Shown in pieces: positions 1 through 2,111 of a stretch of 12,485 nucleotides of DNA. The position numbers were made by a program, and so were the translations under genes. The DNA comes from a virus. The stretch is taken from UHGV virus genome UHGV-0140160. The stretch is one strand, 5' to 3'. A model generated the notes under the pieces. The model made no database searches and was not told where the DNA came from. It saw only the letters and a list, made by a program, of their open reading frames with translations. The stretch's first letter is position 1. Every line of letters starts with the position of its first letter.

Positions 1-2111
1 GAGGGCCACGGAACAGGTACACCAACGGGCAGCGCAGAGCCTTCCCCCAAACCAAGGTAATCAAGAACTCCCTGAGTGCTGGTTTTACCAAGAATGGCAC
101 GTCCAACACTTGTCAACGCGGTTAACGCGGCACGATCTGCCCCTGTAAAATATGGGAGTTTATCTGCTGATGTAGCAAGCTCCGCCAGCGCCGTCAGGGT
201 GGCATCCTTCGATTGCTTACCCGCAAGCGCGTTAGTCATGGTAGTCGCAAAGTTCGGGTCATTGCCCAGCGCCGCAGCCAGTTCGTTCAGCGTGTTCAGT
301 GCATCAGGGGACGAATCTACAAGTGCGGCAATCGCAGCCATAACGAAAGCCGTGCTTGCGATCTGGGTATTATTAGTCCCCTGTGCCGCTGTTGGTGTTG
401 TTGGCGTTCCGGTCAGTGCCGGGCTGATTAATGGTGCTTTCTTGTTCGTTTCATCCATTACCGCCTTAACAGCTTTTGGTGTCGCTGCCAGCGTTTCAGA
501 CGTGCTGTTCGTGGCGCTACTGAGCTGAACAAGGCCTTTTCGTGCCGTAGTTGCGTCCTGTGCTGTGTATTTGCCATTAGCAAGATCATACGCTGCCTTA
601 ACTGCCTTAGGCGTTGCTGCAAGAGTTTCAGACGAGCTGTTGATGGCACTACTAAGTTGTACAATGCCGCTCTGAGTGAGGCTGGCTGCTGGTACGTCGG
701 TAATCTGGCTCCAAGGGTGGTTATGGCTGGCGTTGGCACACTCTGCAAAGCGAGCACTTAACCAGGAACTCAACCAACCGTCTCCCCACTGACTGCCATA
801 CACATCACCACCGGTGCTATAACGTGCATCCCCTATCAGAAGCTCTTTTAATGAGGTAATACTTCTTTCCGTGAAAAGGAACACACGCTGGCCGTTGGCG
901 AACACGGACAATACGCCGTCTCCTTCCTGTTTAATTCCGGTATCGTAATCGCCCAGCGTCAGAGAGTTCCCCCCCAGTCTGTTGTTGGTATTGATGCCGA
1001 ATGCAGAGGTCTGCGGCAGATTAAGTTTACCTGTCATGGTGTCGCCATCTTTGGCAACTTTTTCTCCAATCAGGCGAGTCACTGTCGCGGAAAAGTTCGG
1101 GTCATTACCAAGTGCTGCGGCAAGCTCATTCAGGGTATCAAGAGCTTCTGGTGATGAACCAACCAATGCGGATATGGCAGCTCTTACATAAGCGGTCGTA
1201 GCAATCTGCGTGTTATTCGTACCCTGTGCAGCGGTAGGCGCAGTAGGTATTCCCGTTAATGCAGGACTTGCCAAAGGCGCTTTGAGGGCCAGGGCATTGT
1301 TGATAGTTGTGCTAAAATTCGGGTCGTTATTGATCGCAGCTGCTATTTCTTTCAGCGTATCCAGTGTGCCAGGTGCACCATTGATAAGCGCATTTATAGC
1401 AGCATAGACAAAGGCCGCATTTGCGATCTGCGTGTTGTTTGTTCCGGGTTCAGGTGTTGGCGAAGTCGGCGTACCTGACAGATGCGGACTATCGAGCGGA
1501 GCTTTTGTATCAACCAAATCATGGAGAGTTTTGACAGCCAGAGGTGTAGCCGCTTTTCTTTCTTCTGTACTGCTTATTTCATTAGAGAATTCGACACCAA
1601 CAGCACGGTTAACCCGGTATTTAAGCAAAATCATTTCTTTAGTCACAGCCGTTGCGCCGCTAGGCACGATAACTCGACATAATTCAATTTGATTCTGCCC
1701 AACAGTATTGTCCGTACGCGCGTAAATTCTTGCAGCACTGACAGAAGATGCGCTATCTACCTGTGTCGTTTTTACACCATGTTCAAAATTGGCTTCCAGC
1801 ACAATAATGTTGGTAGCCCCTGCCTTTACCGAGACAGTCACATCTTCTATTTGCTGAACGGATATCTGAACATTATTCACATCTACTGAAGCAGCCCCTT
1901 TACCTTCTGAGTTTTCAGAAGTTATACGGACGTTCAACCCTGTGCCGGGAACTGGTTCAAATCCACAGTAAAAGCCAGGCAAAACAATATTTTTAAGTTT
2001 TCTGTTAAGAGCCGAACTACTATAGAGTTCGAAATATTGAACATCAGCAAGCAACGGCTGTGAGACACCAGAGGATAGCGTCATTATGCTTTTCGTTTTA
2101 TCAGCCCCCAT
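1..2111 (-). CDS. Tail fibre protein, P1 S / Mu S / P2 H / lambda Stf family; first 703 codons only, gene continues past the window start (partial)
   Basis: Minus-strand frame opens at ATG 2111-2109 (GAGGG 7 nt upstream, 2 nt after the stop of the preceding gene) and stays open to base 1. It is absent from the ORF track only because its stop lies outside the window. Hand translation starts MGADKTKSIMTLSSGVSQ and contains hallmark tail-fibre motifs: GDTMTGKLNLP; duplicated G(I/L)VQLSSA(I/T)NS(S/T)SETLAATPKAVKA; three copies of GTNNTQIA-TA(F/Y)V...LDTL(N/K)E(L/I)AAA(L/I)(G/N)NDPNF; and the constant-region signature KDATLTALAELATSADKLPYFTG...VLDYLGLGEG. Confidence 0.88.
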   Translation of the reverse strand, partial: MGADKTKSIMTLSSGVSQPLLADVQYFELYSSSALNRKLKNIVLPGFYCGFEPVPGTGLNVRITSENSEGKGAASVDVNNVQISVQQIEDVTVSVKAGATNIIVLEANFEHGVKTTQVDSASSVSAARIYARTDNTVGQNQIELCRVIVPSGATAVTKEMILLKYRVNRAVGVEFSNEISSTEERKAATPLAVKTLHDLVDTKAPLDSPHLSGTPTSPTPEPGTNNTQIANAAFVYAAINALINGAPGTLDTLKEIAAAINNDPNFSTTINNALALKAPLASPALTGIPTAPTAAQGTNNTQIATTAYVRAAISALVGSSPEALDTLNELAAALGNDPNFSATVTRLIGEKVAKDGDTMTGKLNLPQTSAFGINTNNRLGGNSLTLGDYDTGIKQEGDGVLSVFANGQRVFLFTERSITSLKELLIGDARYSTGGDVYGSQWGDGWLSSWLSARFAECANASHNHPWSQITDVPAASLTQSGIVQLSSAINSSSETLAATPKAVKAAYDLANGKYTAQDATTARKGLVQLSSATNSTSETLAATPKAVKAVMDETNKKAPLISPALTGTPTTPTAAQGTNNTQIASTAFVMAAIAALVDSSPDALNTLNELAAALGNDPNFATTMTNALAGKQSKDATLTALAELATSADKLPYFTGADRAALTALTSVGRAILGKTSTQGVLDYLGLGEGSALPVGVPVPWP
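42..67. other. Candidate Din-family (Cin/Gin/Hin-type) inversion crossover site at the constant/variable junction of the tail-fibre gene
   Basis: 26-bp sequence ttcccccaaaccaaggtaatcaagaa with the central core aaaccaaggt identical to the centre of hix/gix-type sites as I remember them (TTCTTGAAAACCAAGGTTTTTGATAA). It lies exactly where the conserved constant region ends (encodes LDYLGLGEG). Dyad symmetry of the arms is weak (6/12). Confidence 0.3.
220..1481 (-). repeat. Intragenic direct repeats of the tail-fibre gene: three ~200-bp units (about 220-416, 1058-1262, 1275-1481) and a tandem ~130-bp pair (about 470-730)
   Basis: Seen directly: near-identical DNA blocks such as gcgatctgggtattattagtcccctgtgc / gcaatctgcgtgttattcgtaccctgtgc / gcgatctgcgtgttgtttgttccgggttc, and agcgtttcagacgtgctgttcgtggcgctactgagctg / agagtttcagacgagctgttgatggcactactaagttg. 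They encode the repeated peptide modules listed for the tail-fibre CDS. Unit boundaries are approximate. Confidence 0.8.

Follow-up and report, generated by a model that had tools for sequence, protein, structure and literature searches.

The S protein of phage P1 is an established tail fibre and specificity determinant and was detected in the virion by mass spectrometry (PMC9024508). In the P1-related plasmid prophage p15B, the Min system joins a constant 5' part of the fibre gene to alternative 3' cassettes by means of a serine invertase (PMC6109161), an arrangement that is also proposed here. Similarly, E. coli EC958 carries fibre genes with a stable 5' part containing Phage_fibre_2 repeats and an invertible 3' part of the Phage Tail Collar type, joined at a 26-bp (base pair) site; these sites were shown to invert, and the inversions disturb assemblies there too (PMC4134206). 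The DNA analysed in this study is the 12,485-nucleotide (nt) stretch recorded as UHGV virus genome UHGV-0140160 (in the following, the window), which is the reverse complement of the whole metagenome contig ena:ERZ1749178:NODE_1789_length_12485_cov_4.24. Positions 1–2111 of its minus strand very likely encode protein S, the long tail fibre of a phage-plasmid of the D6 group (P1-like), of which the N-terminal ~83% is present; this assessment includes the readings of tip switching and of an assembly branch at the contig end set out below.

Identification of a truncated tail-fibre gene

Translation of the reverse complement of 1–2111 yielded 703 sense codons, starting from the ATG at 2111–2109, with no stops, whereas the remaining five frames contained 15–57 stops each. 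From the base composition, a stop was expected about once per 20 codons and the chance of 703 open codons was ~6e-16. Among 300 shuffled versions of the sequence, the longest run without a stop, whichever the frame, had a mean of 118 and a maximum of 204 codons. A partial product of 703 residues had already been called at the same place by the gene caller of the public collection. The gene is invisible to the open reading frame (ORF) track because this track leaves out ORFs running off the source (listing threshold, at least 60 amino acids (aa)). Over 1–2111, the ORF list contained no minus-strand ORF covering the stretch and one out-of-frame minus-strand ORF (458–757). An earlier note on this DNA had described a single 703-codon minus-strand frame that was truncated by the window and hidden from an ORF finder requiring a stop. 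The frame and its absence from the track were both confirmed; the truncation is real as well, except that the cut is the contig end and not an arbitrary window edge.

The product was assigned by comparison with family and protein databases. Three stretches matched the Pfam family Phage_fiber_2 (PF03406; E=4.5e-43; score 145 bits, cutoff 22); the match to PHROG 454 ('tail fiber protein') had E=0. A database search returned 7823 proteins at E<=1e-50, most of the named ones being tail fiber or phage tail proteins. The closest phage protein was the S protein of D6, with 95.7% identity over residues 1–351 (blastp). P1 S aligned in two blocks, the first covering window residues 10–351 (54%, E=1e-124; P1 S residues 10–400) and the second residues 476–696 (56%). 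Residues 167–383 of P2 H matched window residues 474–690 with 85% identity (E=2e-107), and further P2 H alignments fell at window residues 370–430 and, more weakly, 173–425. Residues 1–79 of lambda orf-314 (the C-terminal half of Stf) matched window residues 625–703 (66%, E=2e-29), and the blastp matches to lambda orf-401 and Mu S were confined to fibre repeats. At the DNA level, 96.8% identity to D6 was observed across the first 1034 nt of the gene, ending at window position ~1092, and positions 140–668 showed 86–87% identity to P2-type H genes. A sequence search of the PDB gave no full-length structure match, with repeat-level matches only, to Mu S (5yvq, 8ju3) and a 'tail collar fibers gp4' chain. 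The tail-fibre identity and motifs proposed in the earlier note were therefore upheld. The comparison that it had suggested, with P1 S, Mu S, P2 H and lambda Stf, was run and gave significant matches to all four proteins; the outcomes that it had named as contrary, an in-frame stop or a lack of tail-fibre matches, were not observed.

The alignments show that the S protein of the window shares modules only, not orthology, with P2 H, lambda Stf and Mu S; such sharing is known fibre-gene mosaicism. Assignment as a P2 gpH orthologue was considered and rejected: nothing aligned to P2 H residues 1–166, and the context is P1/D6-like and not V-W-J-I-H-G. By analogy with P1 S, the protein is predicted to be a structural component of the virion that sets the host range.

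Modular structure of the constant segment

All window features in this and the following section lie on the minus strand. The constant segment (Sc; 55–2111) runs from the start codon up to the dinucleotide at the centre of the candidate crossover site described below and comprises ~686 codons, compared with 454 in P1 and ~405 in D6. It begins with an N-terminal domain (1584–2111, ~residues 1–176) that is common to D6 S and P1 S and, based on its N-terminal position and conservation, is presumed to mediate baseplate attachment. This domain is followed by a degenerate first 'a'-type unit (1494–1625), which is Phage_fiber_2-like, has an AATPLAVK core at residue 187 and is the counterpart of the P1 'repeated element a0/a1'. 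The first 'b'-type repeat (1314–1502, residues 204–266; APLDSPHLSGTPT...NDPNF) corresponds to the P1 'repeated element b' (222 nt); the second (1092–1280, residues 278–340) extends to the position at which the near-identity to D6 DNA stops.

The adjoining 'M' module (693–1058, ~residues 352–473; ...GDTMTGKLNL...GDYDTGIKQEGDG...SHNHPWSQI) is related to P2 H, its residues 370–430 being 51% identical to residues 480–540 in the distal half of that protein (E=1.6e-16, blastp). It contains an SHNHP (HxH) motif, matched no Pfam family and is itself present in only some of the homologous fibres. The likeness to the distal half of P2 H suggests that M may be an ancestral tip trapped inside the shaft by recombination. 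M is followed by two tandem full 'a' units of 44 aa each (429–692, residues ~474–517 and 518–561; Phage_fiber_2) and a third 'b'-type repeat (249–437, residues 559–621), which falls within the stretch matching P2 H at 85% identity. The last part is a conserved pre-crossover segment (68–248, ~residues 622–681; ...LPYFTG...LTSVGRAILGK...), which aligned with P1 S, D6 S, P2 H and lambda orf-314.

The shaft modules are thus arranged in the order a, b, b, M, a, a, b, with three AATPxAVK cores and three b elements, and both elements of P1/D6 S-type shafts, 'a' (44 aa, Phage_fiber_2) and 'b' (~74 aa), are present. Among homologues, the number of 'a' units varied from 2 to 11 and that of 'b' units from 0 to 4, with M present or absent, a variation that is familiar module shuffling of fibre genes. 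The exact module order of the window was found in none of 120 cluster representatives; it was found in the metagenome contig L012 (100% over 502 aa), and the metagenome contig L010 had the same order with one extra 'a' (94%). Tandem Repeats Finder detected no repeats in 1–2200, and self-blastp of S gave the diagonal only; the repeats were mapped at the protein level because they are too diverged or dispersed in the DNA.

Candidate crossover site and exchangeable tip

A 26-bp Cin/Gin/Min-type site (TTCTTGATTACC-TT-GGTTTGGGGGAA) was located at 42–67, in frame across codons 682–690 (VLDYLGLGE), with its central TT at 54–55. Its 12-2-12 layout, central TT and GGTTT half-site core are the same as in the cixR/cixL sites of D6 and P1, and the layout also agrees with the consensus published together with the EC958 prophage sites and with those sites themselves (PMC4134206). 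Moreover, its right half-site is identical to all eight cassette sites of the E. coli plasmid pKOr024_2 (NZ_CP147095), the best-matching complete plasmid. It is a candidate crossover site that is canonical by sequence. In the coding direction, the last 70 nt read TTCTTGATTACC-TT-GGTTTGGGGGAA-GGCTCTGCGCTGCCCGTTGGTGTACCTGTTCCGTGGCCCTC, and the contig ends with ...CCGTGGCCCT.

Given the crossover site at 42–67, the window would hold the entire constant segment and ~18 codons of the tip. These first codons of the exchangeable 3' segment (1–54; GEGSALPVGVPVPWP...) were delimited by the junctions of homologues and probably represent the start of a tip of the Phage Tail Collar type, with only the first ~11 residues (LPVGVPVPWP) of the Collar-domain region; the missing portion would comprise about 125–160 residues of the tail-collar type. 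Homologues with an identical junction carry precomputed PF07484 (Phage Tail Collar). The junction YLGLGEGSA was common to 85 of the 120 best homologues, in which it led into 65 distinct tips, mostly 139–174 aa in length. Up to PVGVPVPWP the tips of these homologues agree, and they diverge from the next codon on, exactly where the window ends. Joining of the constant part to different tips was seen across relatives, not within the window's element.

The fibre of pKOr024_2 is 85% identical over window residues 269–703 and runs 136 residues further, to ...ETRPRNIAFNYIVRAA. Besides the site in S, this plasmid has eight inverted ones (1.4 expected by chance), each of which heads a cassette of ~150–177 aa that has 215–240 nt in common with the active tip; a nearby recombinase shows 73–75% identity to Cin and Gin. 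On the contig of the window, one site only was found, with no second crossover site (a single core match is within chance), and neither a recombinase or invertase among the ORFs nor an alternative cassette was detected, the contig ending 54 nt past the site centre.

According to the proposed mechanism, a serine DNA invertase encoded in the parent element would recombine the site of the window with one or more inverted copies heading alternative 3' cassettes. The same constant shaft, whose N-terminal domain would anchor the fibre to the baseplate, would then be fused to different receptor-binding tips of the tail-collar type (~140–175 aa). Exchange of the tip would alter receptor specificity and switch the host range, as for P1 Cin, Mu Gin and p15B Min. 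If tips are swapped, mate contigs beginning with (T/A)AAAACGTTGGTTTGGGGGAAGG would be expected, and the cassette heads would be GGTTTGGGGGAAGGCTC beside the preceding stop codon.

Three further observations concern pKOr024_2. In its fibre locus (~30.9–37.1 kb; L002 800–7100), the eight tandem tail-collar tip cassettes are annotated in RefSeq as 'phage tail protein' only. The sole tail-fibre-assembly gene (5981–6592) sits inside the invertible region, so that most isomers would leave it opposite to S. In addition, a truncated cin remnant (913–1090) lies beside an oppositely oriented full recombinase (1346–1918).

Contig end and competing explanations

The contig stops at the last codon common to related tips, 54 nt beyond the centre of the site. 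L010, an independent assembly from another sample, ends at the same base, and its last 300 nt are identical. All five contigs with the same R protein (the product of the gene upstream of S) lose S at the contig end, two of them inside 'a' or 'b' repeats; L012 ends inside tandem 'a' repeats and L011 inside a 'b' element. In L008, a different, P1/D6-type Sv follows the site, which is located at codon 478. Since the window and L010 share their end base and this base falls at the last common codon, the truncation is probably an assembly break at a branch of alternative tips or repeat copies, induced by repeats or by inversion: an assembler would meet a branch where the alternative tips or repeat copies diverge, and the contig would end there.

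Several points weigh against the reading of 1–2111 as the constant part of a switching fibre. The contig carries no invertase or alternative cassette that would demonstrate tip switching in the window's element, and the module functions proposed above follow from position and homology. Among P1-like plasmids, there are some whose inversion system is degenerate, the cin and C segments being truncated or rearranged (PMC6906374). The coverage of the contig is ~4x according to the record name, so that low coverage alone could have ended it, and a shared strain together with similar behaviour of the assemblers, instead of active inversion, could explain why the two contigs (L009 and L010) end at the same place.

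A fixed tail-fibre gene, with one tip, a site that is an inherited relic and no working inversion system, would agree with the degenerate P1-like plasmids and with a contig on which an invertase and a second site are lacking; moreover, the junction region also occurs in lambda Stf and P2 H, neither of which has its own invertase. This explanation is nevertheless unlikely, given that the 12-bp right half-site is identical both to the pKOr024_2 cassette sites and to the EC958 site shown to invert, that relatives join the junction to 65 different tips and that two assemblies break at the first variable codon. Truncation by low coverage or chance, unrelated to repeats or inversion, likewise has little probability: the contig name does give a coverage of ~4.2x, but the end nucleotide is the same in an independent contig of a different sample and is the last before related tips diverge, and other truncated relatives end inside repeats. 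Low coverage is thus the weaker alternative to a branch at alternative tips.

Beyond a switching fibre of this kind, a broader proposal can be made tentatively, with doubt slightly outweighing belief: the source element might be an expanded Min-type shufflon with at least eight tail-collar cassettes (as in pKOr024_2), the breaks might be a signature of active population-level switching in the D6 group, and the module order a b b M a a b might mark a distinct lineage. The principle of many-cassette switching has been known since the work on p15B.

Upstream genes and remaining contig

The gene order S, R, 16, bplA, pmgA, sit, pmgB, rep is that of D6. The five genes upstream of S on the same strand matched the P1-type R, 16, bplA, pmgA and sit families (PHROG), and a pmgB-like and a Rep3-initiator gene follow past sit in a D6-like arrangement. 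In D6, a P1-like plasmid prophage whose annotation uses the names of the P1 counterparts, these genes are ordered and spaced in the same way. The contig has six tail-module genes, all of them intact and equal or close in length to those in D6. Together with a frame that is open over 2.1 kb and substitutions relative to relatives that are mostly synonymous, this makes it very improbable that the phage-plasmid is defective and the frame, although open, an unused and inactive remnant, even though defective D6-like and P1-like plasmids are common (PMC6799933; PMC6906374) and only 12.5 kb of the element is seen.

As the S gene of a D6-group phage-plasmid, the frame starts 2 nt after the stop of the R homologue (148 aa; 2114–2560, minus strand; PHROG 2032, E=3e-72; precomputed PF26881, Phage_P1_tail_fiber_R), with a spacing identical to that in D6. 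A Shine-Dalgarno sequence, GAGGG (2118–2122, minus strand), was read 6 nt before the ATG at 2111, within the 3' end of R. Because of the 2-nt distance between the R stop and the S start, R and S are probably co-transcribed and translationally coupled. Upstream of R, a conserved 23-nt block, GGAAATCACAAACTAAACATACT (GGAAATCACAAACTNANCATACT), was identified at 2596–2618 (minus strand) by comparison with D6 and pKOr024_2; it is the sole conserved stretch, the R-upstream regions of all three having diverged elsewhere. The motif GGAAATCACAAACTAAACATACT occurred once per D6-group locus and in none of the shuffles. The GGAAATCACAAACTAAACATACT/GGAAATCACAAACTNANCATACT block may be a promoter element of the R–S unit, a candidate D6-group late promoter. 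P1-type late promoters (LPs or LPdar, AAGTTACTT...-10) were not found in the whole window with up to 5 mismatches allowed, and a generic sigma-70 and terminator scan of 1–3600 gave nothing above chance. A hairpin with an 8-bp stem (AGCCCCAC/GTGGGGCT) is located at 2642–2665 (minus strand), after the gp16 stop.

PHROGs and GenBank give R the label 'tail fiber assembly protein', which is probably outdated, because a study of the P1 virion placed R in the baseplate wedge as the orthologue of T4 gp8 (PMC9024508). For R and gp16 (2114–3515), the local Pfam-A scan returned no family and the precomputed table lists PF26881 and PF26903 (Phage_P1_Gp16), a discrepancy that is probably due to a difference in library version. 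The sit-like tape-measure/transglycosylase gene (5332–9270, minus strand) starts at GTG 9270 in the mechanical ORF (1312 aa) and at 9174 in the public call (1280 aa). A gene for a Rep3-type plasmid initiator (10461–11354, plus strand) adjoins the tail module, as in D6. Positions 9100–12485 showed only ~86% identity to the nearest plasmids, with no plasmid covering at least 80%; by this comparison, the replicon/immunity side is more divergent than the tail genes. Both window ends are contig ends, and the right one cuts an ORF6N-domain gene (12065–12484, plus strand).

Plus-strand reading frames

The ORF list contains seven plus-strand ORFs of at least 60 aa (65–150 aa) in this region, at 76–528, 213–431, 982–1191, 1210–1407, 1432–1692, 1482–1682 and 1689–1889. 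The earlier note had counted six and described them as Ala/Ser-rich antisense artefacts. Richness in Ala and Ser applies to the four that lie in the wobble-aligned antisense frame (22–36% Ala+Ser), with 9–18% in the other three, and it mirrors the composition of the sense protein (14% Ala, 11% Thr, 9% Ser, 8% Gly). None of the plus-strand ORFs had a Pfam match, and their best PHROG E-values (0.026–0.05) were not meaningful. The longest (150 aa) was within chance when compared with the shuffle maximum of 204, and promoter-like sites on the plus strand were not enriched (6 found, 4.7 expected). The plus-strand ORFs are antisense by-products of an Ala/Thr/Ser/Gly-rich gene, as had been claimed. 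The accompanying warning that the track could lead to mis-annotation is realistic, the lambda reference record carrying an antisense orf206b inside stf. There (NC_001416, 20147–20767; L007 1148–1768), the hypothetical protein 'orf206b' is annotated on the strand opposite orf-401 (stf), which looks like a real-world case of antisense-ORF mis-annotation.

Mismatches at positions 1/2/3 of the minus frame numbered 23/22/114 against D6 and 31/21/100 against pKOr024_2, a clear third-position excess. As a proof of strand, however, the codon-position test was rejected, since the main plus-strand ORFs have the same wobble position and near-equal synonymous/nonsynonymous counts (antisense frame, 22/8, 26/17 and 18/8; true frame, 20/10, 27/13 and 23/4; comparisons with D6 and pKOr024_2). 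Because the wobble positions of the antisense frame coincide with those of the true frame, substitution patterns cannot separate the strands. The strand call therefore rests on stops (0 in the true and 17 in the antisense frame over the compared blocks), homology and context. That some plus-strand ORFs (e.g. 76–528, 150 aa) are real overlapping genes, as could be argued from the four whose synonymous/nonsynonymous counts against D6 and pKOr024_2 resemble the true frame and from GenBank annotations such as lambda orf206b, is scarcely credible, because these counts are a geometric by-product of the coincident wobble positions, the antisense frame has 17 stops, and family matches, lengths and promoter-like sites all remain at the level of chance.

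Implications and comparison with known systems

The gene is of an ordinary, well-understood type, that of the P1/D6 gpS fibres with Cin/Min-type 3' switching, and the finding leaves the existing understanding unchanged. It apparently adds one more modular, invertase-served fibre to those of P1/D6-like phage-plasmids, which is relevant to predicting the host range of elements in which resistance genes are frequent. Where a contig end cuts a gene, an ORF track that demands a stop codon overlooks it and displays antisense debris only. Tail-fibre genes are especially prone to this effect: their 3' ends, being invertible or repeated, are places where assemblers break, and Ala/Thr/Ser/Gly-rich coding leaves long open antisense frames. 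Recognition of the site indicates that the whole constant part of the fibre is on the contig and that the host-range tip must be sought on different contigs or by long-read sequencing. For p15B, the work of Sandmeier et al. from 1990 reportedly described six crossover sites.

Like the gene in the window, those for D6 S (MF356679, orf35) and P1 gpS (NC_005856) follow R in the same tail module and have 'a' and 'b' elements as well as an in-frame site at a YLGLxE motif. The window differs from both in its much longer constant part, the extra M module and the P2 H-like a-a-b block. Furthermore, its junction leads into a short tail-collar tip (GEGSALPVGVPVPWP), whereas those of P1 and D6 lead into a long Sv (RELGTSGEKIPLL...). 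The fibre of pKOr024_2 has the same junction and half-site as that of the window, but a single 'b' in place of the two in the window, and an additional 'a' unit. D6 possesses cin and pKOr024_2 a recombinase, whereas the contig of the window is without cassettes or an invertase. P2 gpH, lambda Stf (orf-401 and orf-314) and Mu S have shaft modules in common with the S protein of the window, but their N-terminal attachment domains are unrelated to it and their genomic context differs. The sites of EC958 Phi2, TCCTCAATTACCTT GGTTTAGGAGAA and GAGAGATAAACGTT GGTTTGGGGGAA, are close to the TTCTTGATTACCTT GGTTTGGGGGAA of the window. However, EC958 Phi1, Phi2 and Phi4 are chromosomal prophages with a single two-state segment, whereas the backbone of the window is that of a D6-like phage-plasmid, with an N-terminal fibre domain of the P1 type.

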